DNA of 39,294 bases from Methanobacteriota archaeon (GCA_002685895.1 NYYK01000002.1:1-39294); one strand, 5' to 3'; positions 3,677 through 18,915 are shown, counted from the first letter of the stretch. The notes: generated from the sequence alone by a model not told the origin. Numbers and translations: made by a program.

Positions 3677-4802
3677 AATAAAGGATATTGCACATTTCTT
3701 TGGCAATTAATTCTCCGGCCAGCCTGTTCCCCTCGACATTCCAATGGCCTTCACCCGAATCATCAAAGCCATGTAGATAGGTATTATTAGTCTTAGCGTA
3801 TGTGAGGAACTTAGGTGCCAAAGTAATTACAGGCACATTGATCGATTCGCCGAGTTTCCCAATACGTCTTTCGGGATAATTAAGATCAGCTTTATTTTCA
3901 GGCTTAACCTGAACACCGTTGGTCAAAGTTACAATTACAAACTTCGAATTATGAGATTTAACCTCCTCATTCATCTTTTTAATAATTTCTTCGGTTATTC
4001 TCCATGCTTCTTCCCATTCTGGTGCCGGCGGATCAGAATAAATTTCTGTATCCAAGCCGGGGTCACCTCTCTTTGCATCTTCATCTTCTTTGTTAATGCC
4101 AAGTTCTTTCATTAGTCTCTGGTTGCGCGCGGAAATTTTGATCTTATTTATCATTTGCATCGTCCTAAAGTTATTTACAATCAAGTGTGAGCCTTGATAA
4201 AGAAACTTCTGTGAGCTTTTAAACTCTTTTGTGTCTTTAAAAGATTCATCCAGCTTTAGTTCGCTTCCATCCAAAAAGAAATATGGAATATTGTGAACAT
4301 TATTAAGTGCTTTTGAGTTTTCTCTTACATCGTTTCCGGAAAGGAAAGAAAGCAGAACAATATCAGGCTGATAATCCCAGACTATGTGCTTAAGAAGCAG
4401 GTATTCCTGCGCAGTCGAGAAGCCGGACATTCCGAAGTTCAAAACTTCAATCTCCTTACCAGCACAGGTGTTCAGTTCATTCTCCATTATGGACCAATAT
4501 GCATTCTTAGCATTAACATGACGGGCCTCTGTATATGAATCTCCCAATACAGCGACTCTGATTACTCCGTCAGCTTTTTCTTTTGAATACAATTTGTCTC
4601 TGAAACCATCGTGATTCACCTTGAAGTGCGCCTTTCCTTCGTCTTGCCAATATCCTTCCGCTTCCGGACGGAGAGAAAACCCGGTCACAGGGTCTATTCT
4701 CATATAATAAGGGAAAGAGAACCCCACTAATCTGAGGATGATTTCGAATATTAAAACTGCAATGGTTACAGATATGATGATAAGAAGTAGCTGTTTTCTC
4801 AT
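3675..4802 (-). CDS. membrane-anchored SGNH/GDSL-family hydrolase (paralogous type to 135..1127)
   Basis: ORF 3675..4862. The preferred start is Met21 (MRKQLLLIIISV...) at 4802, which forms an ATGA overlap with the upstream M50 protease stop. It has a TM helix, block I VAVLGDSYTEA, and a C-terminal GEGHWNVEGN. Confidence 0.75.
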   Translation of the reverse strand: MRKQLLLIIISVTIAVLIFEIILRLVGFSFPYYMRIDPVTGFSLRPEAEGYWQDEGKAHFKVNHDGFRDKLYSKEKADGVIRVAVLGDSYTEARHVNAKNAYWSIMENELNTCAGKEIEVLNFGMSGFSTAQEYLLLKHIVWDYQPDIVLLSFLSGNDVRENSKALNNVHNIPYFFLDGSELKLDESFKDTKEFKSSQKFLYQGSHLIVNNFRTMQMINKIKISARNQRLMKELGINKEDEDAKRGDPGLDTEIYSDPPAPEWEEAWRITEEIIKKMNEEVKSHNSKFVIVTLTNGVQVKPENKADLNYPERRIGKLGESINVPVITLAPKFLTYAKTNNTYLHGFDDSGEGHWNVEGNRLAGELIAKEMCNILY

Positions 4803-5476
4803 AAAACTCCGGCAATAATATTCATTATTACAAGGAATGGCGTCATTATCCCAAACACCCATGTGGAAAGAATTGGAATATTAAATACCATCCCTGCGAT
4901 TATCAGTCCCAACAGAATTATCGGACCGCGTGCCATGAATTCAAAATATTCACGTTCATATCTAAGCGGAATGAAAGCGTAAAGAACTTTTGAACCGTCC
5001 AATGGATTAATCGGCAACAGATTGAATGCCATAAGAGCTAGATTTACAAAGATGCAACGGCTTAGAACGCGCTCGAGCATTATCATTACAGTAGAGCCTC
5101 CACCAGAGCCTCCAAGAAGTCCGATTGCAGATGTTGAGTTCCATTCAAAAAGTCCGATCATCAAAAAGAAACAAATAAACGCTGTGATCAGATTAGCCGC
5201 AGGGCCTGCGAGAGCTACAAGTGTAGTATCGCGTTTAACATTCTTAAAATATCGCGGATCAATAGGAACAGGTTTTGCCCAACCGAATCCAATTACAAAA
5301 AACATCAGTGTTCCTATCGGGTCCAGATGCGCGAGGGGATTGAGGCTGACACGATTATCCATCTTTGCTGTTGGATCCCCCAGTTTCAAAGCAATGTATC
5401 CGTGTGCAAACTCATGAACAGAGAGGCCGATTAAAACGGCGATGATGAAAGTAGGGTTTAGGAAAGTCATTGGCAC
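4799..5476 (-). CDS. site-2 protease family (peptidase M50) membrane metalloprotease
   Basis: 225 aa and polytopic. It has HEFAHGYIALKLGDPTAK (HExxH), LNPLAHLDPIGT and NLLPINPLDGSKV, all typical of M50 proteases. Confidence 0.88.
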   Translation of the reverse strand: MPMTFLNPTFIIAVLIGLSVHEFAHGYIALKLGDPTAKMDNRVSLNPLAHLDPIGTLMFFVIGFGWAKPVPIDPRYFKNVKRDTTLVALAGPAANLITAFICFFLMIGLFEWNSTSAIGLLGGSGGGSTVMIMLERVLSRCIFVNLALMAFNLLPINPLDGSKVLYAFIPLRYEREYFEFMARGPIILLGLIIAGMVFNIPILSTWVFGIMTPFLVIMNIIAGVL

Positions 5477-5519
5477 TACTTTAGCGCAGTATCTTACCCT
5501 TAGACAGACTCTCTTTGAT

Positions 5520-5750
5520 TTACTGAATTAAATCGTCATCTGTCTCGATAACCACTTGTCCAGGATAATGTGGTACCAAATCAGCAAGTAGTTTTTCAAC
5601 CTGCGATTTTATTTCTCCGGTATCGACGCCGGGAAGAGTCGTGACTACAAGAATATCGGGTGTAAAAGTAGCGCCTTCTACTCCTTCTATAGCAAGTACT
5701 TGTCCCCCTGCCTTTTCTGCTATACAGTGAGGATCTGGTCCGCGTCTCAT
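5520..5750 (-). CDS. hypothetical protein (76 aa)
   Basis: ORF only, with no recognisable motif. It is co-directional with, and 43 nt upstream of, the M50 protease gene. Confidence 0.4.
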   Translation of the reverse strand: MRRGPDPHCIAEKAGGQVLAIEGVEGATFTPDILVVTTLPGVDTGEIKSQVEKLLADLVPHYPGQVVIETDDDLIQ

Positions 5751-5840
5751 ATAGTTGTATTATAGCAGAATATGAGAAATAATCAAATAGCGTTAAATTT
5801 GTTGACGTATTCAATAACAAACCTTAGGCTTCTTTAGCTC

Positions 5841-6050
5841 ATGTCACGTAAATGCTCCAAGACTGGCAAAAAGACTGTTTTCGGAAATACCCGAAGCCAC
5901 TCGATGAGACATACAAGGCGCCAGTTCAAGCCGAATATTCAAAAGAAGCGAGTTTATGATCCTAAAACAAAGACTTACAAAGTTATAAAGGTCTCGACAA
6001 GTTACCTTCGAACTTTGGCGAAGAGAATGCAGGAGGGGAAGAAGGTTTGA
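5841..6050 (+). CDS. rpmB: 50S ribosomal protein L28
   Basis: MSRKCSKTGKKTVFGNTRSHSMRHTRRQFKPNIQKKRV... is a canonical L28 N-terminus. Confidence 0.93.
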   Translation: MSRKCSKTGKKTVFGNTRSHSMRHTRRQFKPNIQKKRVYDPKTKTYKVIKVSTSYLRTLAKRMQEGKKV

Positions 6051-6085
6051 TTCGGGTTCGGCTATCGGGTTCGGTTTTCGGGTTT
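6051..6085. repeat. TCGGGTT-type heptamer tandem repeat
   Basis: TTCGGGTTCGGCTATCGGGTTCGGTTTTCGGGTTT fills the convergent spacer between rpmB and the GGQ protein gene. Confidence 0.7.
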
Positions 6086-6086
6086 A

Positions 6087-6500
6087 TTATTCATCCTCCT
6101 CAGGATCCACTTTCTGCCTGGATTCCTTTTTATCAGCTTGGTGGTGCTTCTCTTCGAGCATCTTTTGCTTTGACCTTCTGGATCTGCGTTGTTTTTGCTT
6201 TTCTATCTTATGATGTTTCTGGGCAAGTTCCGATTTTGCGTCTAATTGCTCTTCCTCGATCTTATCAATTAATAACTCATAAGCTTCTTTTCTATTCTGA
6301 TGAAGACCTCTGTGATGCTGGTATCTGACTGTGATTCCAGTTGGCTCATGCGTCAGCTCCACACAATTGGTCGATTTATTGATCTTCTGGCCCCCATGCC
6401 CGCCGCCGCGCGTATGGTGCTCCTCGATATCCTCCAATTTGATCTCGAGCTTAGCTATCTTCTTCAAGTACTTTTGTTGTAGGTCATCTGGTAAGTGCAT
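6087..6500 (-). CDS. ArfB/ICT1-like GGQ-domain peptidyl-tRNA hydrolase (class I release-factor domain protein)
   Basis: 137 aa with GGHGGQKINKSTN (the GGQ motif), followed by a long Lys/Arg/Glu-rich C-terminal tail, as in ArfB-type rescue factors. Confidence 0.75.
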   Translation of the reverse strand: MHLPDDLQQKYLKKIAKLEIKLEDIEEHHTRGGGHGGQKINKSTNCVELTHEPTGITVRYQHHRGLHQNRKEAYELLIDKIEEEQLDAKSELAQKHHKIEKQKQRRSRRSKQKMLEEKHHQADKKESRQKVDPEEDE

Positions 6501-6504
6501 GACT

Positions 6505-6597
6505 CAAGTATTAAGTATTGAGTATTAAGTATCAAGTATGGAATGCCAGTTGTCTGAACCTTGATTTGCTTGATTACAGGATTAACTTGATTACAGA
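6505..6597. repeat. two adjacent word repeats (TAAGTAT x5; CTTGATT(ACAG) x3)
   Basis: CAAGTATTAAGTATTGAGTATTAAGTATCAAGTAT at 6505-6539, then CTTGATTTGCTTGATTACAGGATTAACTTGATTACAGAG at about 6560-6597. Confidence 0.7.
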
Positions 6598-6721
6598 GAA
6601 TTACCTTAAATCCTGTTTATCATGAAAATCATGTTGATCATGGTCTTTTTTGTAAGAATCACAAACCTCACTCGTCTTAAGCACTGTCACAGACACTTTT
6701 ATTCTTTCCCAACCATACTCA

Positions 6722-7111
6722 ATGAAAAGGCTCGACAGATTCGTATCACTCTCTCTATTAGGAGTCCTTACTGTTGCACTGGTGCCCGTAGCATCAGCAC
6801 AGGGACAATTCTGGGGACAAATTCCCGAAGGCGCTCGCGAGGAGCTTAGGGAATGCAAGGAAAAAGAAACAAGAGAAGAGAAACGCGAATGTGCGAAAGC
6901 GGTATTCGAGAAATACGACATCGATCCGCCTGTAAGACGTATACGTAGGCATTTCAAGCACAAGATAGGAAGAGGGGTTGGCAAATGTTTACGTTTAGAG
7001 GATAGAGGAGAGGCTTCACAATGCTTCCTTAACATTTACGACAAGGTGAAACAAATGAGGGAAGAAGGGGGACCCACGCACCAGAGCGCTAGCGCGCTCG
7101 GTTCGGGGTAA
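6722..7111 (+). CDS. secreted hypothetical protein (signal peptide, four Cys)
   Basis: 129 aa. The N-terminus MKRLDRFVSLSLLGVLTVALVPVASAQG looks like a Sec signal peptide. The mature part is charged and helical with paired Cys (RECKEK / RECAKA / GKCLRL / SQCF). Confidence 0.6.
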   Translation: MKRLDRFVSLSLLGVLTVALVPVASAQGQFWGQIPEGAREELRECKEKETREEKRECAKAVFEKYDIDPPVRRIRRHFKHKIGRGVGKCLRLEDRGEASQCFLNIYDKVKQMREEGGPTHQSASALGSG

Positions 7112-7112
7112 A

Positions 7113-7197
7113 AATCCTGAAGTGTAGTTTCAGGATTACATCATCGGAATACTGCTGCAGTTGATTACTGCGGCAGTATTTGTTAATTATTGGTTTT
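7113..7197 (+). terminator. two consecutive hairpins after the secreted-protein gene
   Basis: First hairpin: AATCCTGAA (7113-7121) / TTCAGGATT (7129-7137), a perfect 9-bp stem. Second hairpin: AATACTGCTGCAG / CTGCGGCAGTATT (7148-7180, 1 mismatch), followed by T-rich TGTTAATTATTGGTTTT. Confidence 0.45.
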
Positions 7198-7206
7198 AGT
7201 TGAGAG

Positions 7207-7289
7207 CAATTAGCAGATTAGCAATTAGCAATTGGCTTTTTTTTAATCAAAAAAATAGCCAATCTGCCAATCTGCCAATATGCTAATTG
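7207..7289. repeat. ATTAGCA/ATTGGC heptamer repeat with inverted arm (long hairpin)
   Basis: CAATTAGCAGATTAGCAATTAGCAATTGGCT, then T8AATCAAAAAAA, then TAGCCAATCTGCCAATCTGCCAATATGCTAATTG. It lies directly upstream of the ECF sigma gene. Confidence 0.8.
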
Positions 7290-7328
7290 CCGGTAATTTG
7301 TGTAAGAACATACCTCTTCATTCGTCTT

Positions 7329-7859
7329 ATGATCTGGATGCCCCATTCTTCCGTAGAACGCCGTTTCACAAAAGCGTACGACCTATACGCAGACTCGATC
7401 TTTAGACATTGTTACTTCCGGATTGGAGACAGAGAAAGGGGCAAAGAGCTGATGCAGGACGCATTCCTTAAAACCTGGGAGTACATCGCCAAGGGCAACG
7501 AAGTGGAAGATATGAGGGCATTTCTGTACCGTACGGCAAATAATCTGATAGTCGATCTGTACAGGCGTAGAGCCAAGAGGACAGAGGAGTCGTTCGAAGA
7601 CTTGCAGGAAAAAGGTTTCGATGTTGCAAGTTCAGAAAGAACCGAAAAGGAGACCGAAGAAGGTTTTACTTCAGATGAAGTAGTATCGGTGCTTGGCAAG
7701 ATAGAAGAGCCGTACAGATCAGCAGTAATAATGAGATACATTGATGATCTGAGTCCCAAGCAAATTGCACAGTCCCTTGGAGAATCGGTAAATGTAGTAT
7801 CCGTTCGAATAAACCGCGGAATGAAGAAGTTAAAGTCACTATTACCAAAATATGGATGA
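7329..7859 (+). CDS. ECF-type RNA polymerase sigma-70 family factor
   Basis: ORF 7287..7859 starts at a TTG inside the repeat, so I prefer the ATG at 7329 (or 7338). Region 2 is DAFLKTWEYI...FLYRTANNLIVDLYRRR. Region 4 is VIMRYIDDLSPKQIAQSLGESVNVVSVRINRGMKKLK. Confidence 0.85.
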   Translation: MIWMPHSSVERRFTKAYDLYADSIFRHCYFRIGDRERGKELMQDAFLKTWEYIAKGNEVEDMRAFLYRTANNLIVDLYRRRAKRTEESFEDLQEKGFDVASSERTEKETEEGFTSDEVVSVLGKIEEPYRSAVIMRYIDDLSPKQIAQSLGESVNVVSVRINRGMKKLKSLLPKYG

Positions 7860-8658
7860 ACTAGAAAAATTTTTGGCCTCAGCAAAAGCAGTATCCCTAT
7901 CGGATACAGAGCGTTGTGCAATGCGTGATGAGATATTTGCGGGAACCGTTGCAAAGTCGGTCACTGGCATTGAGCTAAGTAAGTGCGAAAAAAGGAGTTT
8001 TAAAAAAGAATTGAAAAGATTTATTAAATTGAATCCAATTGTTTCTTTTGGTAATTCGTTTGGAGGTCTTATGCATCTTAAGTTTGCTGCAACTGCTGTA
8101 ATTGCCGCGATTATTATTACTTCGACCGGCGGAGGAGTTGCATATGCGGCGGAGGATACTCTGCCCGGCGATCTGCTTTATCCGGTCAAGGTAAATGTTA
8201 CAGAGCCCTTGCGCGAGCACATGCATTTTAATAAAGATACTCGTGCACGATGGGCGGAAAAAAGACTCAAGCGCAGACTCTCGGAAGCGGAAGCACTTCT
8301 AAACAGGGGAGAAGTTTCTGATGAAAGAATGGAATGGATACAAAAACGCATTGCCATGCATCAAGTTCACTTAGAAAAAAGAATGCAGAGTTTGCCGGCA
8401 GGAATTCCCGGAGAGATCAGAAACCATTTGGAAGAACGTATGCAGGAGCATATTGATTTTCTAACTGCGATCGAAAAAGGTGAAATTCCAATGCCGAAAC
8501 TGGAAAGAGTACGCGGACATGCAAAAAAGCAAAGGATGCATATGCAGATGATCAGACAGAAGCCTCAAATGCAGCATCCAAAACTAAAGGAGAGGATGAG
8601 GGGAAAGGGGATGAAGCAGGGTGGGCTGTTTAAAGAAATGATTGAGGAGAGACATTAA
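7852..8658 (+). CDS. anti-sigma-like membrane protein with DUF5667-like extracytoplasmic domain
   Basis: Its ATG overlaps the sigma stop (ATGGATGA). It has a single TM (FAATAVIAAIIITSTGGGVAYA), then LPGDLLYPVKV and a helical, basic C-terminal part. Confidence 0.6.
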   Translation: MDELEKFLASAKAVSLSDTERCAMRDEIFAGTVAKSVTGIELSKCEKRSFKKELKRFIKLNPIVSFGNSFGGLMHLKFAATAVIAAIIITSTGGGVAYAAEDTLPGDLLYPVKVNVTEPLREHMHFNKDTRARWAEKRLKRRLSEAEALLNRGEVSDERMEWIQKRIAMHQVHLEKRMQSLPAGIPGEIRNHLEERMQEHIDFLTAIEKGEIPMPKLERVRGHAKKQRMHMQMIRQKPQMQHPKLKERMRGKGMKQGGLFKEMIEERH

Positions 8659-8665
8659 TAAATAA

Positions 8666-8693
8666 AACTTAGAACTTAGAACTTAGAGCTTAG
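8666..8693. repeat. AACTTAG heptamer x4
   Basis: AACTTAG AACTTAG AACTTAG AGCTTAG. The same word occurs at 19758-19799. Confidence 0.85.
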
Positions 8694-8720
8694 GGGCAGT
8701 TTTTGATATATCATTAGAGT

Positions 8721-8810
8721 GGAGGGATGGCTGAGTGGTCGAAAGCGCACGACTCGAAATCGTGTTAACCCTCACGGGTTACGAGGGTTCGAATCCCTCT
8801 CCCTCCGCCA
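8721..8810 (+). tRNA. tRNA-Ser (anticodon CGA), class II with long variable arm, CCA encoded
   Basis: Acceptor GGAGGGA / TCCCTCC. Anticodon stem CACGA / TCGTG with loop CU-CGA-AA (anticodon at 8755-8757). Variable arm AACCC-TCAC-GGGTT. T arm GAGGG-TTCGAAT-CCCTC. It ends in GCCA. Confidence 0.93.
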
Positions 8811-9121
8811 TGCATTACACTAATGGCACCCTAAGAATAGCTTCACTATAGGCAGCAAACTTCGTGCCTTTTACCCTTAAAATCCTATTTAGCTCTTGTT
8901 ATCCTTACAAGGGTACCAATCCTGCTTAGTTAGGTATATAGAACACTAAGGGCACTTTGAAAAGTTTTGTACCTGCTCTCATACGTGAAGATATTCTTAG
9001 GTTGCCAAACATTATCTGTCGAGTTTTCAGATATATATCTGGGGTAAACATTTGTATTTTTTTGCTTTAATTCTTCAAATCTGACTAGATAATGCTAGTT
9101 ATCTGATAAATTTACAAGATA

Positions 9122-12100
9122 TTATTCTTCAGTTTTCTCAATTTTGATTACCTCTTCTGGTGACAATTGAATCGGTAAGAATCCTTGCAAGGCAGATGAT
9201 AATTCTCCAGTTTCTAATGCTTTATGAACAGCAGGCTTTACAGATGTTTCAAAGGCTGCACGAAAGGCTTCGGGCACCTTTGCACTAACCTCATTCATTA
9301 TTGCAGCTTGCATCTTTGGATTCATACCACCAAGCAATGCTGAAACTATAACACGCATTAAATCATCTCGGCCTATAAACTGTGTGTACTCACCATCTGT
9401 TAATAATCCTTTTTGCACTTCTGTTACAAATGGGTCTAACTGTTTACCTTCTGCTTGTAATCTATCTCTCATTAGCCGCTCTTGTTCTACAAGGTCATTG
9501 AAGAATTGCTTTACTGTTTTTTCACCATTTAATGTACTTAGGAGTAATGATGCAAATTGCTGATAACCTTCTTCAGACCACTCATCCATTGCCATAGACT
9601 TAAAATCGAAGTGTCCGCTACATAATGAATCCCTTTTTACCTTAAGATTTCCACCATGACGATCAGAGTCAAATTTTCCTCGTAATTTGTTATTAATTTC
9701 TAAAGTTAGATTGATCATTGCATATTCCCTTTTTTCATCGCTTTCATCCTCTAGCTCAATGAAGTGATCACCTTCCATTTCGGTCATTAAGAAGAAGTTA
9801 TCACCTGCTGCAATTACATCAGGAGCATCAAATGTATACTGCCTTTCATCCATTGTAACAGTAGACTTTCGATAAATATCTGCAGCTGTACCGTATTGTA
9901 ATTTTGCAATACTACAGTCAGTCTCTATATCAAGACGACTACTTGCGTGTTGTACTAGTTCACGAGTGGTTTGCAGGGTAGTTTCACCCATTGCTGTTCC
10001 CAAATTATCAGCCATTCTACTCATAGTATCAAAACCAGCTCTTCCTCTTTCAAGAGAGTTTGGTCTAACAATTGATAGCATGTAGCTACCTCCATTACTA
10101 AGCTGAACTCTCGTAACTACATTAATTGAACCAGACCCAACCACATCGCCAATATGAGTTATAGTAGTTGGTTTACCAAAGTGCTGACTACACTGTCTTT
10201 CTAAATCCTCTTTTATTTCCTCTATCCACTCGGTTACTTCCCATCGTTCTGGTTCATCAGCATTATACTTTAAACGCTTTAGGTCTGTTCTTATGTCTTC
10301 AGGGACAAGTGGGTGACTTTGAGCTGCTTGACCAAATTTAGTTTCGGCAGGACCCATATTTTCAAGGAATAGTGCCAATGATTCGCCAAGTCTCATGGTG
10401 GTAACATCTTTCTTCTCAGAAGCAGACATCATAGCCGCTAAGCATAGATGCTTCTGATAATGAGGCAATGCGTCTACGTATGCTCTTATAAAATATCGTG
10501 ACTCTTGTTCATATAATCCACCGCCTGGGAATAACTTAGATATTGCATAGTCAAAAGTTTCTGCATCTACTGCACCCAATGAATCCTCTGGCGATATGAG
10601 CAATTCTCTTGAAAGAATAGCCCTAATCTCAATAGGTGCTGACCAGAAGTTTTCGTAAAAGTAACGAGTAGATTGCATGGCAAGCTGATACCTAAATGCA
10701 GAAAGTGCAGTATCAACTTGCTGTTCATCGCTTTCCGACTTTAGCGCGAAAGCACCTCTAATAGGATCATTTGGGTCTACAAACTCTAAGGCATCTATAG
10801 TCGAATCAATAAAATGTTTAGCTGAATTTAAAGAATAAGGAGTAGTCAAAAAATCTAAAGTAGATTGTCTATGCTCTGGCGATTTTCTAATGGCATCAAT
10901 ACATCCATCAGTTAAAATTCCATAGTATGCTGGCTTATCTATCATTTCTTTTGTTACTTCATAAACTTTATCCCTCATCACGCTACTCACTCTGTGCTGT
11001 GCTTCTACATCTTTTGCTAATTGACCAAGGATATGTTTCTGATCAACACGGTTAACATTGGCCTGTATTCTTTCTGAGATTGCTACTGCTTCTTGCTCGT
11101 ATTTACTACTGCCATCATCTATGCCATTAGCAGCCAGTACATTAGTAGACCAAAGCTCAATTAGTTCTGTTCTTAGTCCAGGATTTTGCACTCTACGACC
11201 ACCTAAAATTGTCTCACATAAACGTATCTGCTCATCTTGTGGCATACCACCATTACCATTTTTATGCTTAATTCGAGCTAATATTTTAGTTAAGACTTTA
11301 TCAACCATTTCTGGGAATATTAAATCAGCTTCACTCAATAGTTTCCACTGACGAACAGTGCCAGTTAGATTATTGGTACGACTTATGCTTCCAAGAAATG
11401 CGGTAGCAGATTTTGTTAATGCCTCTCGAAGATTTTCTTGGAATACAGAACCAGAAATATAATTTGCACCCATTACTTCTACAAGCTGGGCTGCCTCTTT
11501 CAATGATGGAGTTCTTTCAATCATTAATACAACAGCTTCTGCCATTAATACAGAAGTTCTTAAGCCCACTTCCTCTTCGCTCTCTTTTGATTCTGCTAAA
11601 ATAGACAAATACTTCTTCCAGGTACGTGGCTGCAATTCATAACTTTTATTCACATCGGTGAGAACCGAGTCCAGTTTTTTTATGTAAAGAGCAGCCAGCT
11701 CAGAATCGAATATAGGAAAACGTCCATCAAAATGACTTCTTTCCTCTTGACCCTTTATATATGTAATACTATCACCAGTGAGCAATTCCTCAAACAGCTC
11801 ATATTTTTCTTCTGGGCTAAAAACGCCAGTGTCTTCTTGGAGGATGAAAGTTATATAAGGGTTTCTTGATACTGCGAATTGATCTGTATCCACTGCATCT
11901 TCGTGATAACTTTCTAGCCTTTCTTCTGTCATACTAACAAATGCCATTTCACCAGGCATAGAGTTGGCTATCAGCTTTTTACCCTCCTCAGAATCAAACA
12001 ATTGTCGAACAGTATTCTGATAACGCTCTAAATCTTCATCCTTTAATTTCCTTAACCAATCCATAAAAGTTCGTATCCTTCTTTCCTCTGTAGTTAAAGG

Positions 12101-14464
12101 ACCTGAATTCAATTCAGTAAAAAGAGCAATATTATGATCACAATGCTCCATGCATATTGGAGGCCTATGTTCAAATGGATGCCAGATTTCAGTTAACCCT
12201 TTTAATTTTTGCAATGAGTTTGGATTGTCCGAATCTAAGAAATATGCAACTGCTCTAGTTGTTAAATGTAACTCCATTGCTCTACTTTCTTCTGATAAAT
12301 CTAAGGCACCTCTACCTAAAGATGTGCCAATTACTTCTCCTTCTTCATTATATCGAAGTTGCTCAAGTGTATCACCTTCACCAGATGGACCATTCGAGAT
12401 AGAGGGAATAATATTTATCGCTGCCTCTGAATTAAATGCTTCTTCTGACATATCAAACAAGGCAGCCATAGATTCTTTTTGCGCTGTCATTTGTTGCCCA
12501 GCACGGTCAAGAATGTAGTCGTATACCACATCGCCATGGTTACATAGTGCCTCAAAAACAAATGGATCACGTTTTAACCCTGCAAAAACTGCAGCTTTAG
12601 CAACTTGTGGATGTTGAGCACTTAACCTCCGAAGAGCATGCCATGGAGGTAGCTCTGGTATGTATTCATTTTCTTCGTCATCTCCATCTGAATCATCAGT
12701 TGAACTTTCCCAACTAAAACGGTCTTCATCATCGTCGAAATCATCACTTTCATCACCATAAATACCTTGTCCATAATCTGTATCGTAAAAGCTTTTCACT
12801 TCTTCTTCTTCTTCTTCTTCTTGGTCTATCTCTTCTCTACGCAAATCCTTACTTTCAACAATTGCATCTACATTAGGGAAGGAAAACTGATTCCATTTTA
12901 TACCTCTTAAGAAGTTAACTCCTTTTAGAGTTCCATGCAGATTTTCACTTTCAACCACCTGAACCAGTTTGTCTGCTGCTTGTAAAACAGCTTCTTTGTC
13001 TATTTCCTCTTCATTAATTCCATCAACTGTTTCAACAAATTTAGCAATCGCGGTGCCAACTTTTCTTAGTCTCCCTAGTGGTTTTGAAGAACGTGTAAGC
13101 GATCTAAGTTCTCCATATAGATAGTCCAAGTGACTAAAGCGTCGCTTTGCATCTTCATGCTCATCATCATCGGAGATTGTAAGCAATGTATCCGCCAACC
13201 TATGAATTGCACCCATGTCTTTACTAGTTTCTACTGACTCTCTTAATGATTTTATTTCGTCTCCTATATCCGTAATGCGAGTGCTGTATCTACGATCTAA
13301 TGCGGATAATATTCTACCTAATGTATCCAATTTTTCTGATACTGTAGCAGCTTCATAATTTTCAACTTCAGAAAGACGATTTGCTAGATATGACTGGTGT
13401 TGTGCATTATTTACTACAGTCATTATTCTATCGCTGTTGTTGTAATCGGGTAACTCATTTTCTTCTGGTGCAAGCTCACCATTCTCTTTGCGAAGGTATG
13501 CAAGTGTATCACTGACAACAGAACGGATATTATCATGCGTAGGATGAACATCCATGTACTTAGACCAGCTGTCATATGCTTTCAGTTGAGAATTCATAAC
13601 ATTATATATGCCTGAAGTACCATCTTCATCCATCACGCGTTCGGGGTTTAATCCAAGCTCTCTACCATGTTCATACATGATGGCTAATGGCAATGCGTAT
13701 GCAAAACCTTCTTCAATTTTTGAATTAGGAATATTGCCATATACCTTACGCATTTTCATGTGAGTCATTTCGTGGCAAAGAATTGCTGCCAAATCATGTG
13801 GAGATGTTACAAATGGTCTAAAAACCTTACCTTCTTTTTCTTTGCTCTTGTATTCTCTGAATAATCCTTCTGTAAGCACAATGATAGGTGGCTTACTGTG
13901 TCTCATAAACCATGCATTTGGCTCTTTTTGTTTAGAGAGCATAAATCTAACAGGTTCTTTCTCAAAGTCATGGTGCTTAAATTCATAATGTGGCAAATGT
14001 GCCTTGCTAGGGTCTTCTTTGTACAAGGTAGCTACAAAAGTTTGTATCATATCTTGAAATTCCTTACCTTCGGCTGAGCTTGGCTCAACCAATCGCCAAG
14101 ATTCTGCAATTGGCAGTGGAATCTCTCCTTTTTCTAAAGCTTCAATGATGGCATCTTTTTCTTCAGCGTCATCATCAGGCTCGTCTCCGTTACCCTCTGT
14201 GTCATCAGCTATTTCATCTTCATCCAATTCATCTATTTCTACCATGCTAGTATCTGCTGTAGCTGCCATTCTTAACCGATAGCCACTAGCAAGCCTACCT
14301 GTGGAGATAGTTGGCTGTTCAGGAATGGTGTTTTTAGGGTCTAAGCGTTCATCTAGTAAATCTCTAATTCGTGTACGACCTTCATCAACATCTTTGAGGT
14401 TGTTTTTAGGGGGAATCTTGGAAGTTCCAGCCAAATCTTTGTTTTCATCTAATGGTTGCATCAT
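9122..14464 (-). CDS. giant multidomain protein (1780 aa): N-terminal HExxH gluzincin-like module, acidic linkers, C-terminal UbiB/ABC1-like kinase module
   Basis: The ORF is uninterrupted. The protease-like motif is AAILCHEMTHMKMRKVYGNIPNSKIEEGFAYALP, i.e. HExxH with a downstream EEGxA as in MA-clan gluzincins. The C-terminus has MGPAETKFGQAAQSHPLVPEDI (a KxGQ-type motif), VVGSGSINVV, SIVRPN, KFDSDRHGGNLKV and HFDFKSM, collinear with ABC1/UbiB kinase motifs. There are two Asp/Glu-rich tracts. Confidence 0.8.
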   Translation of the reverse strand: MMQPLDENKDLAGTSKIPPKNNLKDVDEGRTRIRDLLDERLDPKNTIPEQPTISTGRLASGYRLRMAATADTSMVEIDELDEDEIADDTEGNGDEPDDDAEEKDAIIEALEKGEIPLPIAESWRLVEPSSAEGKEFQDMIQTFVATLYKEDPSKAHLPHYEFKHHDFEKEPVRFMLSKQKEPNAWFMRHSKPPIIVLTEGLFREYKSKEKEGKVFRPFVTSPHDLAAILCHEMTHMKMRKVYGNIPNSKIEEGFAYALPLAIMYEHGRELGLNPERVMDEDGTSGIYNVMNSQLKAYDSWSKYMDVHPTHDNIRSVVSDTLAYLRKENGELAPEENELPDYNNSDRIMTVVNNAQHQSYLANRLSEVENYEAATVSEKLDTLGRILSALDRRYSTRITDIGDEIKSLRESVETSKDMGAIHRLADTLLTISDDDEHEDAKRRFSHLDYLYGELRSLTRSSKPLGRLRKVGTAIAKFVETVDGINEEEIDKEAVLQAADKLVQVVESENLHGTLKGVNFLRGIKWNQFSFPNVDAIVESKDLRREEIDQEEEEEEEVKSFYDTDYGQGIYGDESDDFDDDEDRFSWESSTDDSDGDDEENEYIPELPPWHALRRLSAQHPQVAKAAVFAGLKRDPFVFEALCNHGDVVYDYILDRAGQQMTAQKESMAALFDMSEEAFNSEAAINIIPSISNGPSGEGDTLEQLRYNEEGEVIGTSLGRGALDLSEESRAMELHLTTRAVAYFLDSDNPNSLQKLKGLTEIWHPFEHRPPICMEHCDHNIALFTELNSGPLTTEERRIRTFMDWLRKLKDEDLERYQNTVRQLFDSEEGKKLIANSMPGEMAFVSMTEERLESYHEDAVDTDQFAVSRNPYITFILQEDTGVFSPEEKYELFEELLTGDSITYIKGQEERSHFDGRFPIFDSELAALYIKKLDSVLTDVNKSYELQPRTWKKYLSILAESKESEEEVGLRTSVLMAEAVVLMIERTPSLKEAAQLVEVMGANYISGSVFQENLREALTKSATAFLGSISRTNNLTGTVRQWKLLSEADLIFPEMVDKVLTKILARIKHKNGNGGMPQDEQIRLCETILGGRRVQNPGLRTELIELWSTNVLAANGIDDGSSKYEQEAVAISERIQANVNRVDQKHILGQLAKDVEAQHRVSSVMRDKVYEVTKEMIDKPAYYGILTDGCIDAIRKSPEHRQSTLDFLTTPYSLNSAKHFIDSTIDALEFVDPNDPIRGAFALKSESDEQQVDTALSAFRYQLAMQSTRYFYENFWSAPIEIRAILSRELLISPEDSLGAVDAETFDYAISKLFPGGGLYEQESRYFIRAYVDALPHYQKHLCLAAMMSASEKKDVTTMRLGESLALFLENMGPAETKFGQAAQSHPLVPEDIRTDLKRLKYNADEPERWEVTEWIEEIKEDLERQCSQHFGKPTTITHIGDVVGSGSINVVTRVQLSNGGSYMLSIVRPNSLERGRAGFDTMSRMADNLGTAMGETTLQTTRELVQHASSRLDIETDCSIAKLQYGTAADIYRKSTVTMDERQYTFDAPDVIAAGDNFFLMTEMEGDHFIELEDESDEKREYAMINLTLEINNKLRGKFDSDRHGGNLKVKRDSLCSGHFDFKSMAMDEWSEEGYQQFASLLLSTLNGEKTVKQFFNDLVEQERLMRDRLQAEGKQLDPFVTEVQKGLLTDGEYTQFIGRDDLMRVIVSALLGGMNPKMQAAIMNEVSAKVPEAFRAAFETSVKPAVHKALETGELSSALQGFLPIQLSPEEVIKIEKTEE

Positions 14465-14679
14465 TGTATTTTATCGCATTTATTGGATGATATCTATCCT
14501 TTATATGCAATTCAAGCCACTAAGCAACATAACAAAGTTCCTTTTTCTCTTCCTCAAACTCCAACATCTCCAACCTTCTATTCAATTCCGTCAGCCCAGA
14601 AAGTAGAGTAAGGATGTCTCCGTAGGGTTCCTTTTTCAACTGATAAGCTCCACCTTAATCGAGTTAAAAAGTGCTATTC

Positions 14680-15903
14680 CTACAGCATTATCCGCCCCTC
14701 CTTCAGCAACAACCTCTCCTTAAAATTCCTCAGCACATTGCTTTTCTCTAAACTCGATCCCTCACGAAAAATCCCAATCAAGTATTCTTCAATGCTGATA
14801 GGATCGTTCTCTGGTCGGAAGCGATTAATCTTCGCAAGATCCTCTTTAATTCTGCGGTTTAACCGTAGGTGTTTCTCTTTAATCTTGCCAATAATGGCGG
14901 CTGCCTCTTCAAACAGTGCTTCCTCTCGTATGTACTTACATTTACACACTCTCGTACCACCATACTTATTGCACTTGTAATACACATAGGTTTTACCGTG
15001 CCGATTCGTATGTTCAGTGCCACTAACACCAGACCCACATTCCGCACACTTCAGTACTTGATTGAAGTAAAAATTCTTACGACCCCATTTACCCTTAGCC
15101 GTGCGTTTAAGGCTACCTTGTACCTTGGTGAATAATTCCTTGCTAATAATAGGCTTATGATTCCCTTGGTATCGAATACCTCCGTACACAAATTCTCCGT
15201 AATAAAAGGGCTCTTGAAGTATGTTAAAGATACGGCTAAACCCCACCGTACCACCACTAATATTTCTAAATCCTTCCTGTTGTAGTTTTTCTTTTGCCTC
15301 TCTGCCTGTCATACCTTTCTCGGCTATGTTGGTAAAAAGTTTCTTAATGTACGGTGCTCGTTCTTCATCTACCACTATAGAACTAGGATCACCAAAGCGG
15401 TCGGCTCGCACCAGCTTATAGCCAATAGGAGGTCGACCTGGTCGTACTCCCATCTCACACTTGGTACGCAGGCCACGTTTTACATTCTTACTTCGATTAT
15501 CGTTCTCTAGCTTCGCTTGACTACAAAGAATCATCAGTAAAAACTTTTCGTCTGGGGTGTTGGTAAAGGTTTGTCCGCTCGTTTGAATTTGCACCAGTAC
15601 CTGTTGATCCATTAAGTCGACTAGCTTTCCTAGGTCACCAGCATTTCTACTTAAGCGATCTGGTGCCCACGTTAAGATTGCGTTGAATCTTCGTTCTTGG
15701 AGTCCTATTAGTAGGCTTTGATATCCTTTTCTTCCGCCAGAATCTTTAGCAGATTTACTTTCTTGAATCGTTTCTACAACTTTAAGACCCTGTTTATCTG
15801 CAATCTTCTGCATGGCTGCAATCTGTGAATCAATGGAAAGAGCTTGTCGCTCATCTGATTCAGATGATTTACGAGCGTAGAGGCAGTGGGTAGTCTTTTC
15901 CAT
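14680..15903 (-). CDS. large serine recombinase (resolvase/invertase catalytic domain + recombinase domain + zinc ribbon)
   Basis: ORF 14680..15963. The likely start is Met21 at 15903 (or Met18 at 15912), so that the catalytic LYARKSSESDERQ lies near the N-terminus. Other motifs: DRLSRN, RPPIGYK, and a Cys-rich CAECGSGV...YYKCNKYGGTRVCKCKY. Confidence 0.88.
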   Translation of the reverse strand: MEKTTHCLYARKSSESDERQALSIDSQIAAMQKIADKQGLKVVETIQESKSAKDSGGRKGYQSLLIGLQERRFNAILTWAPDRLSRNAGDLGKLVDLMDQQVLVQIQTSGQTFTNTPDEKFLLMILCSQAKLENDNRSKNVKRGLRTKCEMGVRPGRPPIGYKLVRADRFGDPSSIVVDEERAPYIKKLFTNIAEKGMTGREAKEKLQQEGFRNISGGTVGFSRIFNILQEPFYYGEFVYGGIRYQGNHKPIISKELFTKVQGSLKRTAKGKWGRKNFYFNQVLKCAECGSGVSGTEHTNRHGKTYVYYKCNKYGGTRVCKCKYIREEALFEEAAAIIGKIKEKHLRLNRRIKEDLAKINRFRPENDPISIEEYLIGIFREGSSLEKSNVLRNFKERLLLKEGRIML

Positions 15904-16031
15904 GTACCTCATGGATGACGCAACCGCGTCCCAAAGGCTAGGCGATTTTACGCTTAAATACATCTTCTAAAGAACTAGAATTTGTTATTCTATAAATATG
16001 TCAAGCCCTTGCAAACGGAACAGAATTTCCC

Positions 16032-16097
16032 CCTTTTTATAGGTGTTCCATTTGTTCCATTTCTCCTTTTTTTATAGTGTCTCATTTGTCTCAATTT
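16032..16097. repeat. tandem ~33-bp direct repeat upstream of the recombinase gene
   Basis: Copy A: CCTTTTTATAGGTGTTCCATTTGTTCCATTT (16032-16062). Copy B: CCTTTTTTTATAGTGTCTCATTTGTCTCAATTT (16065-16097). Each copy contains an internal GTYYCATTT doublet. Confidence 0.7.
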
Positions 16098-16403
16098 AAA
16101 GACAAGAATACTATTCAAAGGGTAGGAGACCTGTATGCTCCGCCATGGCCACTCACTTCGTTCGGGTTCATAGCAAGCCACCAGAGCTGATATAGCCTTA
16201 TAAGAGCCCAATTTGCGACTTTCCGCTACCTTGAAAGGAAAGATTTATAGTTCTTGTTGGGCTAGATTGACTAATATAGTTCAACTGGAGATTTTGGCTT
16301 GTATTAGCCAATTCGCGATAGAATATGCAATTTTCCCACATAATGCGCTCGATCTGTCAATTGAAAATTCACTCTAAAACACCCAATTGAATCAAGAATT
16401 TGC

Positions 16404-16433
16404 TTGCAGAGCTCCTCGGGACATGCGTAAAAT
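16404..16433 (+). promoter_or_regulatory. candidate sigma-70 promoter of the histone-fold gene
   Basis: TTGCAG, 18 nt, TAAAAT, ending about 35 nt upstream of the ATG at 16468. This is a pattern match only. Confidence 0.3.
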
Positions 16434-16467
16434 CTCCATGTTCTTTAATTACTTACCCACTACTCCT

Positions 16468-16638
16468 ATGAGTTACGTAGTAGCTTCCAAGATCAAAGAT
16501 CTTGTAAAAGCAAAAGGTATGATGTCATCTGGTGACCTCTCAGACGCTGCAAGCGCACTTCTAGAGGACGCAGTTTCCAAAGCTGTCGCACGCGCAAAAG
16601 CAAACGGCAGAAAGACTGTTCGCCCAGAAGACCTTTAG
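16468..16638 (+). CDS. bacterial histone-fold protein (HBb/Bd0055-like, DUF1931-type singlet)
   Basis: ORF 16387..16638 begins at a TTG; the ATG at 16468 gives 56 aa: MSYVVASKIKDLVKAKGMMSSGDLSDAASALLEDAVSKAVARAKANGRKTVRPEDL. It aligns by eye with my recollection of the Bdellovibrio histone (VVTSKVKKLIKEKGQM...AKADGRKTV..RDI). The C-terminal GRKTVxxED motif is typical of histone folds. Confidence 0.75.
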   Translation: MSYVVASKIKDLVKAKGMMSSGDLSDAASALLEDAVSKAVARAKANGRKTVRPEDL

Positions 16639-16660
16639 TCTTAATTCGTTAAGTAATCAA

Positions 16661-16687
16661 AAAGGACACCGCGTGGTGTCTTTTTTG
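16661..16687 (+). terminator. Rho-independent terminator of the histone-fold gene
   Basis: AAAGGACACC-GCGT-GGTGTC followed by TTTTTT. Confidence 0.7.
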
Positions 16688-16694
16688 ATTGTAA

Positions 16695-16795
16695 GAAATA
16701 CAAAATACGAAACACGAAACAAATTAAAAATCCGAAAAAATAAAGTTTCAGATTTTGTATTTCGGATTTGTTTCAGATTTCGGATTTAGAATTTG
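16695..16795. repeat. GAAATAC/GAAACAC word repeat with inverted arm
   Basis: GAAATACAAAATACGAAACACGAAACAAATTAAAAATCCGAAA faces TTTCAGATTTTGTATTTCGGATTTGTTTCAGATTTCGGATTT. It fills the convergent spacer between the histone gene and prfB. Confidence 0.75.
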
Positions 16796-16804
16796 AATTA
16801 GTTA

Positions 16805-17882
16805 TTAACCGCGCTTCAATTCCGAATCTATGAATTGTTGTAGATCCCCATCTAACACATCCTCCGTATCACTTGTCTCAACTTCAGTCCTCAAGTCCTT
16901 AACCATCTGATATGGATGTAAGACGTAACTTCTAATTTGCTGTCCGAAGTCTGCACTTTTGGTTGCCCCCTTTAATTCCTTTTTCTTTTCGGTGTCTTCT
17001 TCACGTTGTTTTTCCAAAAGCTTAGCTCGCAGAATATTCATAGCTTGTATCCTGTTTTGTTGTTGGCTTCTTTCATTCTGACATGAAACAACTATGCCGC
17101 TAGGTGCGTGAGTAATTCTTACGGCTGAGTCAGTAACATTAACATGTTGTCCTCCTGCTCCGCTCGATCTGAATGTATCGACTCGTAAATCTTTTTCATC
17201 AATTTCAACTTCAGTCGACTCAGCAATTTCCGGAATAACTTCCACTAGAGCAAAACTAGTTTGCCTCAGATTTTTTGCATTAAAAGGGGAGAGGCGAACT
17301 AGGCGATGTGTTCCGCGTTCACATTTCAGATATCCATAAGAAGGAGATCCTGTTACATGAACTGTTACTGATTTAATTCCTGCTTCCTGCCCATTAGTTT
17401 TTTCCAAAGTATCTGTCTTCCATCCCTGTCTTTCGCAGTACCTCAGATACATTCTAAGAAGCATCTCCGCCCAATCTTGCGCCTCGGTTCCTCCCGCACC
17501 TCCGCTGATTGAAAGATAACAGTTATTCATATCAAACTCTCCACTCAGATAAAGTTGCGTCTCAATTTCCTCCCACCTACTCAGCAATTTTGCTGTCTCT
17601 TCCTCCATACTGGGGCGATCGGATTCCTCAGCTTGTCCAATCAATTCAATTAAATCCCTTGTCTCCTCAGCCAAATCCCGCACAGGCTCCCATTGGCTTT
17701 TAAGTGCCTTTAGCTCTGTAAACAAGGCATTGGCAGCCTTTTGATCATCCCAAATATCAGGGGCTTGTGATTTCTTTTCAAGCTCGGCTATACACTCAGG
17801 AATCTTCCTGGCATCAAAGAGAGTCCTTCCCCGTGTTTACGGCTGTTTGAAGTTCCTTTAATTTAGTTAGCAAGTCCTCCAT
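16805..17882 (-). CDS. prfB: peptide chain release factor 2, requires programmed +1 frameshift
   Basis: Frame 0 runs 17882..17817 (MEDLLTKLKELQTAVNTGKDSL) into an in-frame TGA at 17816-17814. A +1 shift at CTT TGA T continues DARKIPECIAELEKK... into ORF 16805..17725. SPF (RLSPFNAKN) and GGQ (SGAGGQHVN) motifs are present. Confidence 0.92.
17814..17834 (-). promoter_or_regulatory. RF2 autoregulatory +1 frameshift site
   Basis: Minus-strand ACG GGG AAG GAC TCT CTT TGA. The CUU UGA slippery/stop context has a purine-rich GGGGAAGGA upstream. Confidence 0.85.
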
Positions 17883-17937
17883 GAGGAAGGGGGAAAGTAA
17901 GTATCTGACTATTATTATAGCATTAGTGCCTCTGATA

Positions 17938-17976
17938 CAGAATTGATAATTCAGAATTGATAATTGAGAATTAAAG
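17938..17976. repeat. AATTGAT/AATTCAG/AATTGAG heptamer repeat
   Basis: CAGAATTGATAATTCAGAATTGATAATTGAGAATTAAAG, in the divergent spacer between prfB and the DUF1653 gene. Confidence 0.75.
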
Positions 17977-17977
17977 A

Positions 17978-18196
17978 GTGTTAGAGCCAGGTATTTATAA
18001 GCATTACAAAGGCAAGAAATATCGTGTTCTTGGAATCGCCAAACATAGCGAAACCCTCGAAGATTTGGTTGTGTATGAGGCTTTGTATGAAAATGAGAAT
18101 TCTAAGCTTTGGGTGAGGTCCGTGGATATGTTTAAGGAGCGATTAGTCATAAATGGCAGGGAAGTACCCAGATTTGAGTTTATTTCGTCACAATAA
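17978..18196 (+). CDS. DUF1653 domain protein
   Basis: YKHYKGKKYRVLGIAKHSETLEDLVVYEALYENENSKLWVRSVDMF...VPRFEF matches the DUF1653 pattern. The start is GTG. Confidence 0.75.
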   Translation: MLEPGIYKHYKGKKYRVLGIAKHSETLEDLVVYEALYENENSKLWVRSVDMFKERLVINGREVPRFEFISSQ

Positions 18197-18284
18197 ATCT
18201 TAACTGGCAAGTATCATAAATAGCTCTAAATCGCGTTTTCCGCTATAATTAGAGGATAGTAACTTGTATTGAGCCCGTCGAAAT

Positions 18285-18915
18285 ATGCCCAAAACAAATA
18301 CAAAAACTTCAGCTACTCATCCATCTGTGGGAGACGTACTCCACCACGTTTCTGTGCCGTTTCTTATATTCACAGCAGTTCTTTTGGGATTCTTGTCATT
18401 ATCAGCAACTTTGATTCTCCCTCAATTGACGCAGGTTGATATTGCTGGAAAAGAACACGATGCAGTAGAACTAAAGGAGCTTGTTAAGAAATTGGATACG
18501 AGAGTGCAGGAATTGGAGAGAGCAAGAGGAGAATTTGTAACCCCGCTTCGCGAGGGGCTTTTTGGAGATGCTATGGACCAGAAATACAACTCGAGAGATT
18601 TACTTTTGTTTAAATCTCAATTGGAGGAAATAACGCAACAAATTGAAACTGCCAGCCTACGCCAAGGCTACGGCCGGCGAGAAAACAAAGATACAATAAG
18701 TATTAGTTCGATGACGTTTGATCAGGAAGAGTTAAGTTTAAAAGTGGAAGGCAAGGTCCAGAATGTTGGCCCGAGAAGCATGACTGTTCTCGCACAATTT
18801 ATAAATGCTGCACAAGAATCTAAGTGGGTCTCTGATATAAGCCCTCCGAAATTCACTCGCGAACATGACGACGAGAATGGTTTTTATTCTCCATTTATTT
18901 TCACACTTCTATTAA

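Follow-up and report, generated by a model that had tools for sequence, protein, structure and literature searches.

Proteins of the UbiB/ABC1 family are ancient and, as in the case of COQ8A and COQ8B, medically relevant, and their actual role is still debated. In plants, ABC1K kinases of this family and the M48 protease PGM48 are found together on the lipid surface of plastoglobules, as separate, co-localising polypeptides. Here we describe a giant gene in which members of the same two enzyme families are predicted to be joined in one chain. It lies in a 39,294-nucleotide stretch of DNA, analysed in full and hereafter called the window (GCA_002685895.1, NYYK01000002.1:1-39294, catalogued as Methanobacteriota archaeon), and encodes a protein of 1,780 amino acids (aa). 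The family to which it belongs shares one order of parts: a variable acidic N-terminus, a BepA-type M48 core, an α-helical scaffold of ~900 aa and a C-terminal UbiB-fold domain. ABC1K and PGM48 are discussed together in passages of PMC8956952 and PMC12223511, and the plastoglobule pairing would be a functional parallel only, with no evidence of common descent.

In the M48 peptidase BepA, the histidine of the HPX4R motif is the fourth zinc ligand and is carried on an autoinhibitory plug, a plug that the Asp of ExxAD and the Arg of HPX4R latch in place and that is freed on membrane insertion of the lid (PMC13655028). The ATPase of COQ8 and UbiB is activated by cardiolipin, phenolic lipids and membranes; the KxGQ domain contacts membranes, its Gln places the water used for hydrolysis, and protein substrates have no access to the active site (bioRxiv 10.1101/149823). 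COQ8 has also been described as an ATP-gated lipid extractor (PMC13418538), and a lipid-activated ATPase is favoured in the literature for canonical UbiB proteins (10.1101/149823; PMC13418538).

The gene is an uninterrupted open reading frame (ORF) of 5.3 kb on the minus strand (Table 1). An identical protein has been deposited as 'MAG: M48 family metalloprotease [Candidatus Peribacteraceae bacterium]' (MAG, metagenome-assembled genome), with the second Met as its start and 1,779 aa. Thus, the window comes from a genome of the candidate phyla radiation (CPR; Peregrinibacteria), which fits the symbiont-type genome supposed in a first-pass annotation made from the sequence alone. The same annotation had placed the ORF and divided the protein into a gluzincin-like N-terminal module and a divergent UbiB/ABC1-like C-terminal module, separated by a helical middle without a nameable motif and accompanied by two poly-acidic tracts. 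The placement holds, all the quoted motifs occur in the translation in the expected order (among them SIVRPN at aa 1464-1469 and DIETD at aa 1512-1516), and the two modules were recovered with Pfam and profiles at the N-terminus and with TIGR01982, an Rv3197 profile and Foldseek at the C-terminus. Of the acidic tracts, one spans about aa 78-103 and the other about aa 545-600, and both fall in poorly conserved, low-confidence linkers. With a net charge of -126 and a maximum of 1.22 in a 19-residue Kyte-Doolittle window, the protein is predicted to be soluble and very acidic.

Full-length homologues are 28-46% identical to the 1,780-aa protein. In an alignment of 30 relatives (17-46% identity), on which the conservation counts given below are based, every catalytic residue of the two modules is either invariant or kept in at least 90% of the members, and both catalytic centres appear to be under strong constraint. 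Profile scores, Foldseek matches and this residue conservation are the reasons for regarding both modules as more than chance resemblances.

At the N-terminus, the match of Pfam Peptidase_M48 (PF01435; MEROPS clan MA) to aa 166-259 reaches 27.2 bits and so exceeds the gathering cut-off, which is 20.3. A single-sequence search against the PDB gave no match, so that profiles were needed. One covering the core (aa 150-335), built from 29 diverse relatives, matches the solved M48 peptidases 3c37 (E=2.7e-13) and BepA (6ait, 6sar; ~1e-10), in alignments spanning both halves of the core, that is, 'NAF...GL...HExxH' and 'ExxAD...G.nP...HP...R'. In the AlphaFold model of the N-terminal part (mean predicted local distance difference test score, pLDDT, of 79; 80-97 in the core) three strands, the HExxH helix and the Glu helix follow in that order, and HEMTH lies on a predicted helix with pLDDT >90. 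The HExxH core is found in 29 of the 30 aligned members. E252 aligns in the hidden Markov model alignment with the Glu of ExxAD, the third zinc ligand of M48 peptidases, and is kept in 29 members, its neighbour E251 in 28. The N-terminus is thus predicted to be a zinc-protease core of the M48 (BepA/HtpX) type that keeps the plug histidine; of the first-pass assignment, the HExxH/Glu-helix zincin stands, and the label 'Peptidase_MA_2-like' is replaced by M48 on the evidence of Pfam and the profile.

The comparison with BepA, HtpX, LoiP, Oma1 and Ste24 extends to the putative plug. H307, which aligns with the 'THP' histidine of BepA, is kept in 29 of the 30 members, and the H307-P308 pair is present in the 1,780-aa protein, with Ile at the position of the HPX4R Arg. 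In the clade of this protein the ExxAD Asp is replaced by Tyr, giving ExxAY, and the HPX4R Arg by a hydrophobic residue. Across the alignment, position 256 is Y in 14 members and D in 13, and the Arg occurs in 12 (ten with ExxAD, one with ExxAN and one outlier lacking HExxH). The two positions of the latch pair (aa 256 and 313) covary: Arg accompanies ExxAD in 10 of 13 members, whereas all 14 ExxAY members have I, V, A, T, M or S. This covariation follows the clades and is hence suggestive, not independent evidence. A helical-repeat region follows the protease, as in BepA; unlike BepA, however, the protein has no signal peptide, lipobox or transmembrane (TM) helix, and its protease core is embedded in a much longer chain with a C-terminal kinase-like domain.

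That C-terminal domain resembles UbiB more remotely. TIGR01982 (UbiB) matches it with E=8e-11 and 41 bits, against an equivalog cut-off of 487.55, and PF03109 (ABC1) with E=2e-3 and 17.6 bits, against a gathering cut-off of 22.9, which some relatives exceed (P0014, for example, with 28.2 bits). A profile of seven C-terminal sequences matches the UbiB-family protein Rv3197 of M. tuberculosis (5yjz; E=2e-5), and the alignment pairs GSGS with ASAS, LSLLRP with VAVKIQYP, DRHGGN with DAHPGN and DFK with DFG. The AlphaFold model of aa 615-1780 has a pLDDT of 76 and a predicted template-modelling score (pTM) of 0.66, with local pLDDT values of about 57-95, mostly 70-95, in the UbiB-like domain. Its top 10 Foldseek matches, which are entries for MSMEG_1954, Rv3197 and COQ8A, all belong to the UbiB family (E 7e-6 to 6e-5), with target-normalised template-modelling scores of 0.36-0.57, or 0.42-0.57 when only the best entry per protein is taken. 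The structure search which the first-pass annotation had put forward as a check on its kinase-like fold therefore came out in favour of that fold.

With E. coli UbiB, COQ8A/ADCK3, Rv3197 and MSMEG_1954 the predicted domain shares the KxGQ signature, a Ser/Ala-rich nucleotide loop, an 'RP' after the β3 strand, a DxH.G[NQ] loop and a DF[GK] Asp. Apart from the KxGQ residues listed in Table 1, G1443 of the putative nucleotide loop is kept in all 30 members and S1446 in 28; D1601, R1602, H1603 and G1604 of the predicted catalytic loop are invariant, as is D1620, which is followed at the +2 position by K in 17 members and by G in 13. At the metal-binding Asn position (1606), Q is found in 16 members and N in 13, including the 1,780-aa protein. 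The differences are equally consistent. The β3 lysine, already suspected of being replaced here, is never Lys in the 30 members, in whose column the counted residues are A in 11, S in 7, R in 6, T in 2, and D and L in one each. Its loss is therefore read as a family trait and not as the decay of one gene. Moreover, the catalytic loop reads D-R-H-G in place of the D-P-H-P-G of UbiB, the 1,780-aa protein stays below the Pfam and TIGRFAM cut-offs and lacks a TM anchor, and the domain is fused to a protease and the scaffold of ~900 aa, in an accessory, island-borne gene with no quinone pathway seen in the window. Judging from sequence and model, the C-terminal domain forms a clade of its own within the UbiB superfamily and is neither a UbiB orthologue nor a one-off decayed kinase.

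The middle of the protein (~336-1250) is all-helical in the models and has no sequence relatives in Pfam, NCBIfam or the PDB. Foldseek finds only generic ARM/TOG/TPR-like matches for the helical region at aa 336-540 (E>0.09). Conservation is strong over the ~170 aa that precede the kinase-like domain, with R1098, G1114, D1116 and Q1156 as invariant columns. Weak Foldseek matches of the middle region to phosphatidylinositol-3-kinase-related kinases (mTOR/ATM) have template-modelling scores of ~0.1; a kinship with these proteins was considered and rejected, and the matches were read as a generic 'helical region plus kinase' likeness.

The size of the family depends on the search. Word-indexed homologue searches gave only 7, 3 and 3 relatives, suggesting a rare family (7-13 relatives), but this was overturned when 1.84 billion cluster representatives (clusters at 50% identity) were searched exhaustively with HMMER: the aa 615-1780 profile gave 858 matches at E<=1e-3, of which 518 have E<=1e-30. 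In the best 150 matches, about four-fifths of the proteins have at least 1,400 aa and are matched as far as the C-terminus. The family is thus large, with at least 518 clusters, mostly of 1,450-2,000 aa, that share one architecture. Pfam scans of 25 diverse relatives found M48 in 12 (best E=7.7e-17) and ABC1 in 8, and the members go under the database names 'hypothetical', 'M48 family metalloprotease', 'AarF/UbiB family protein' and 'ankyrin repeat protein'. The family is undescribed, yet made of known domains: as the first-pass annotation had supposed, there is no Pfam or NCBIfam entry for the fusion and no paper was found, the full-text literature search having covered an M48-UbiB fusion, UbiB-like effectors within the Legionella pan-kinome paper, and proteins of this kind in Bdellovibrionota or Peribacteria. 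Nor are there copies of the giant gene in phage and plasmid collections.

The taxonomic spread was surveyed in the GTDB species genomes with two narrow peptide patterns taken from a 10-sequence alignment, which restricts the sampling. The scan returned 24 loci, all from MAGs: four from Peribacteria/Peregrinibacteria/Patescibacteria, about 10 from Bdellovibrionota (including Bacteriovoracaceae and Pseudobdellovibrionaceae), one from Caenarcanales (Melainabacteria, class Vampirovibriophyceae), one from Dadabacteria, and about eight from uncultured Alphaproteobacteria and other Proteobacteria.

Some relatives carry additional domains. SidE_PDE is found with E values down to 1e-54, peptidoglycan-binding domains occur in some relatives, P0096 has EF-hands, and P0050 (5,715 aa) has leucine-rich repeats (LRRs). 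In P0125 (3,069 aa), SidE_PDE is combined with ankyrin repeats, and no M48 domain is detectable. Besides ZipA, the genome of P0125 encodes other ankyrin proteins and has a Rickettsia-17-kDa-antigen-like gene. On its contig (L036), P0125 lies near another giant gene (>3,578 aa) and two more ankyrin-repeat proteins (1-5497, 5792-7471 and 27122-29210), and this genome is gammaproteobacterium-like.

The giant gene lies on what had already been taken for a mobile element. Synteny with positions 141-8605 and 16203-26078 of the window, at 76-97% nucleotide identity (86-90% in most blocks), was found in a metagenome contig of 104 kb (L035), which lacks exactly the 7.4-kb segment, 8812-16202, that carries the giant gene and a large serine integrase; L035 thus shows the empty site of the island. 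The integrase has the domains PF00239, PF07508 and PF13408 and matches the phrog_95 integrase with E=2e-64. The putative att core CTCCGCCATG occurs in only two copies in the window, 0.03 being expected by chance. Apart from the integrase, the giant gene is the sole cargo, and its G+C content (0.37-0.39 over 9-14 kb) contrasts with 0.42-0.48 in most flanking windows. Thus, the locus resembles known tRNA-adjacent serine-integrase islands in its Resolvase + Recombinase + Zn-ribbon integrase, tRNA neighbour, short flanking repeat, unoccupied site in a relative and drop in G+C over the cargo gene, whereas it differs from them in having a single cargo gene, no recognised excisionase and a tRNA inverted with respect to L035. 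As sole cargo of a serine-integrase island beside tRNA-Ser, the gene is accessory and horizontally acquired, and as a stand-alone unit it needs no conserved partner gene. The tRNA-Ser(CGA) gene (8721-8811) is inverted relative to L035 10767-10857, to which it is 85% identical (flanks ~88%), and at ~10868-10910 L035 holds, beside the intact gene, an incomplete and degenerate second copy of the 5' half of the tRNA, a pattern that suggests more than one round of recombination here.

In a second Peribacteria lineage, the closest full-length homologue (P0002) is located between a tyrosine integrase and tRNA-Pro(CGG) (L001 8914-16423; also L002-L004 and L011), a second, independent island-like context with another integrase family. 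This locus also holds a 237-249-aa ORF of no assigned role and a small helix-turn-helix/terminase-small-subunit-like ORF; in L003 the tyrosine integrase is truncated and the upstream flank differs. Analysis of the neighbours at 35 loci found no recurrent partner gene, and Pfam scans of 20 immediate neighbours at 11 independent loci gave a heterogeneous set with no further integrases. Two homologues adjoin type IV/Tad pilus genes, namely P0007 (L005 3225-3599 and 11935-15878) and P0006 (L008 10466-14624 and 18079-18576), with N_methyl prepilins, TadE, RcpC, Tad, T2SSE/MshEN and T2SSF among them. Searches of PHROGs gave nothing meaningful for the giant protein, and a promoter and terminator scan of the island gave counts not above those of shuffled sequence.

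Table 1. Features of the giant gene, its product and the island that carries it (window coordinates; functional labels are predictions)
Feature	Protein position (aa)	Coordinates	Strand	Basis
Giant gene	1-1780	9122..14464	-	ORF list and translation: ATG start, 1,780 aa and stop codon
Variable N-terminal region, holding the first acidic tract	1-105	14150..14464	-	Poorly conserved in full-length homologue alignment
M48-type zinc metalloprotease core	150-335	13460..14017	-	Pfam, profile against PDB, AlphaFold model
HEMTH, zinc-binding/catalytic HExxH (predicted)	231-235	13760..13774	-	H231, E232 and H235 each in 29/30 members
EEGFAY, glutamate helix	251-256	13697..13714	-	HMM alignment to 3c37 and BepA
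DVHPTHDNIR, counterpart of M48 'HPX4R' autoinhibitory plug	305-314	13523..13552	-	Aligned to BepA 'THPLPESR'
Helical repeat-like region after protease	336-540	12845..13459	-	All-helical AF2 (AlphaFold) model, pLDDT about 55-93
Second acidic low-complexity linker	541-605	12650..12844	-	Absent or variable in homologues; pLDDT <50
Orphan α-helical solenoid-like region	606-1250	10715..12649	-	Helical AF2 model, mostly pLDDT 70-90
UbiB/ABC1-fold atypical kinase-like (ATPase) domain	1251-1700	9365..10714	-	TIGR01982, PF03109, Rv3197 profile, Foldseek
GPAETKFGQ, KxGQ signature	1371-1379	10328..10354	-	K1376 in 28/30, Q1379 in 30/30
GSGSINVV, putative nucleotide-binding loop, counterpart of UbiB Ala-rich loop	1443-1450	10115..10138	-	Aligned to 'ASASIGQV' of Rv3197
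LSIVRP, β3 strand	1463-1468	10061..10078	-	Ser1464 opposite Lys of 'VAVKIQYP' (Rv3197)
FDSDRHGGN, catalytic loop (predicted)	1598-1606	9647..9673	-	Aligned to 'HGDAHPGN' of Rv3197
DFK (FDFK, aa 1619-1622), counterpart of DFG metal-binding Asp	1620-1622	9599..9607	-	Aligned to 'DFG' of Rv3197
Conserved helical C-terminal tail	1701-1780	9125..9364	-	Homologue alignments; model helices pLDDT about 66-89
Large serine integrase, 427 aa		14680..15963	-	Directly upstream, co-directional; Pfam Resolvase, Recombinase and Zn_ribbon_recom
tRNA-Ser(CGA), left island edge		8721..8810	+	ARAGORN
CTCCGCCATG, left copy of 10-bp direct repeat, putative att core		8803..8812	+	Overlaps tRNA 3' end
CTCCGCCATG, right copy of 10-bp direct repeat		16138..16147	+	Repeat search
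7.4-kb insertion (island)		8812..16202	.	Segment lacking in syntenic contig L035

Outside the island, the flanks hold housekeeping genes, namely those for release factors, IF3 and L20, a V/A-type ATPase operon, and a sigma-factor gene accompanied by an anti-sigma-like one. One release-factor gene, with PCRF and RF-1 domains (ORF 16805-17725), only looks N-terminally truncated: upstream of it, at 17814-17882 on the minus strand, there is a prfB-type programmed +1 frameshift, in which a 22-codon ORF (MEDLLTKLKELQTAVNTGKDSL) ends in CTT TGA T after a GGGG Shine-Dalgarno-like element and the +1 frame enters the 306-aa ORF. About 10 kb from this prfB-like gene, at 6087-6500 on the minus strand, a stand-alone 137-aa RF-1-domain protein is encoded, which we take to resemble an ArfB/YaeJ-type peptidyl-tRNA hydrolase. 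The V/A-type ATPase operon (D, B, A, C/AC39 and others) extends over 21653-31418 and has a G+C content of 0.46-0.48, above that of the rest of the window.

The reading that we tentatively favour, as possible but short of probable, is that the protein is a latent protease gated by membrane or lipid contact and by ATP, and used in the interaction with a host or prey cell. According to this proposal, the UbiB-like module would bind lipid and hydrolyse ATP, a conformational change would be relayed via the helical scaffold, the His307 plug would be released, and the M48 site could then cleave membrane-associated proteins. Of the models considered, this coupling of plug release to lipid binding and ATP hydrolysis is the most economical. 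Licensing at a membrane surface is proposed because membranes or lipids activate the characterised relatives of the two end modules. Also counted in favour of the overall reading are the retained plug histidine with its covarying latch pair, the lack of a conserved neighbour, the island and the pilus genes beside two homologues. The target membrane would most likely be that of another cell, a host or prey, taking into account that the family appears concentrated in predatory, episymbiotic and intracellular lineages and that SidE-PDE, ankyrin, LRR and EF-hand additions occur in relatives. The effector- or toxin-like role that the first-pass annotation offered as speculation is still a suggestion, somewhat strengthened by this taxonomic spread and by these relatives. 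With translocated effectors such as the Legionella SidE family, the proteins share a large size, the lack of a signal peptide and mixed enzymatic modules, and some relatives have SidE_PDE, ankyrin, LRR or EF-hand modules, one of them in an ankyrin-rich, ZipA-encoding genome. In contrast to such effectors, the 1,780-aa protein itself has no eukaryote-type modules, belongs to a CPR host and has no known translocation signal, and no secretion system is seen in the window.

Several observations weigh against this proposal. Sequence analysis of the 1,780-aa protein found no signal peptide, TM segment, lipobox or recognisable secretion signal, and we know of no effector-translocating secretion systems in CPR bacteria. 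The enrichment in predators and symbionts is an impression, with no statistic behind it, from 24 MAG loci and two narrow patterns, and at most loci the neighbours are ordinary housekeeping genes in chromosomal contexts. Foldseek with the whole 456-aa N-terminal model gave only generic helical-repeat matches (E>0.09), for which reason the M48 assignment rests on profiles and motifs. The loss of the β3 Lys, together with Gln for the metal-binding Asn in half of the family, may mean weak or no ATP turnover; finally, the protease and UbiB-like modules could act independently, their coupling being only proposed.

Some of these points would be met by an alternative that we consider somewhat unlikely, in which the same biochemistry operates inside the producer, the protein being a self-contained stress, quality-control or anti-phage (abortive-infection-like) factor with the UbiB-like domain as an ATP-consuming sensor and the protease as output. 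It is with similar reserve that this self-acting protein can be said to follow the modular logic of STAND/Avs-type defence proteins. The missing secretion signal agrees with such a role, as do the lack of a partner or immunity gene, the fact that in two lineages a small integrase island carries this one gene as cargo, an arrangement often met with in defence genes, and the exchange of the N-terminal module in at least one relative, which has SidE_PDE and ankyrin repeats and no detectable M48. However, there is no credible PADLOC match (the best has E=0.003 over 49 residues and the next E=0.024 on a short stretch), phage and plasmid collections hold no copies, the neighbouring genes are not defence genes, and effectors directed at a host are where additions such as SidE-PDE, ankyrin, LRR and EF-hand modules would more typically be expected.

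In a further alternative, in our view an unlikely one, the UbiB-like domain is a dead pseudokinase that only binds lipid, nucleotide or protein or acts as a scaffold, and M48 is the sole enzyme. The absence of the β3 lysine in all 30 members, the Gln in place of the metal-binding Asn in 16 members and the ABC1 score of the 1,780-aa protein under the gathering cut-off would all suit a dead domain, but the six residues Q1379, D1601, R1602, H1603, G1604 and D1620, kept in 30 of 30, and K1376, kept in 28, are conserved more strictly than a scaffold needs; moreover, the KxGQ Gln of COQ8 positions the water for ATP hydrolysis (bioRxiv 10.1101/149823), and six members have an Arg at the β3 position. 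An ordinary UbiB orthologue of quinone biosynthesis, fused by chance to a housekeeping HtpX-like protease, is suggested by the weak TIGR01982 and PRK04750 matches and is very improbable. It was rejected on the basis of a score far under the equivalog cut-off, the lack of a TM anchor and the accessory nature of the gene, which is borne on an integrase island and missing from the close syntenic relative L035, and so is not housekeeping; in addition, the exhaustive search gave only 858 matches, so that canonical UbiBs would be mostly non-significant and the family a separate clade. As for a chimeric assembly, or two genes misread as one, the homologue of L009 is split into overlapping ORFs (1424-3601 and 3564-6272; 725 + 902 aa) and that of L029 is fragmented into 6921-8828 and 8828-10081 (635 + 417 aa). 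These splits could be due to a frameshift or sequencing error, to a pseudogene, or to a genuine division into a protease half and a kinase half. For the giant gene itself an artefact is almost inconceivable, and it was rejected in view of the intact ORF and the recurrence of the same end-to-end architecture in independent assemblies from several phyla.

More than 500 clusters in which a UbiB fold is permanently fused to an M48 protease suggest that the two act jointly on a membrane or lipid surface. A family in which the β3 Lys is missing, while KxGQ and the catalytic Asps are kept in 30 members, offers a natural experiment on the essentials of UbiB-type ATP chemistry. To our knowledge, almost no cell-cell interaction factors are known in uncultured predators and host-dependent bacteria, and a giant gene which a mobile island carries as its one cargo in a reduced CPR genome, with relatives in the lineages named above, is a concrete candidate for one. 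It is a rather doubtful but far-reaching proposition that the 1,780-aa protein is the first example of a class of protease effectors, widespread but undescribed, that are gated by both ATP and lipid through a UbiB-fold module covalently coupled to a latent M48 protease. Bacteria with a predatory, episymbiotic or intracellular way of life would direct them at the membranes of their partner cells, and they could spread as single cargo of minimal integrase islands. If this were true, the fusion would be a 'Rosetta stone' linking UbiB-family ATPases functionally with M48 proteases, and would open the long-unclear role of UbiB proteins to testing, the pairing of ABC1K and PGM48 on plastoglobules included.

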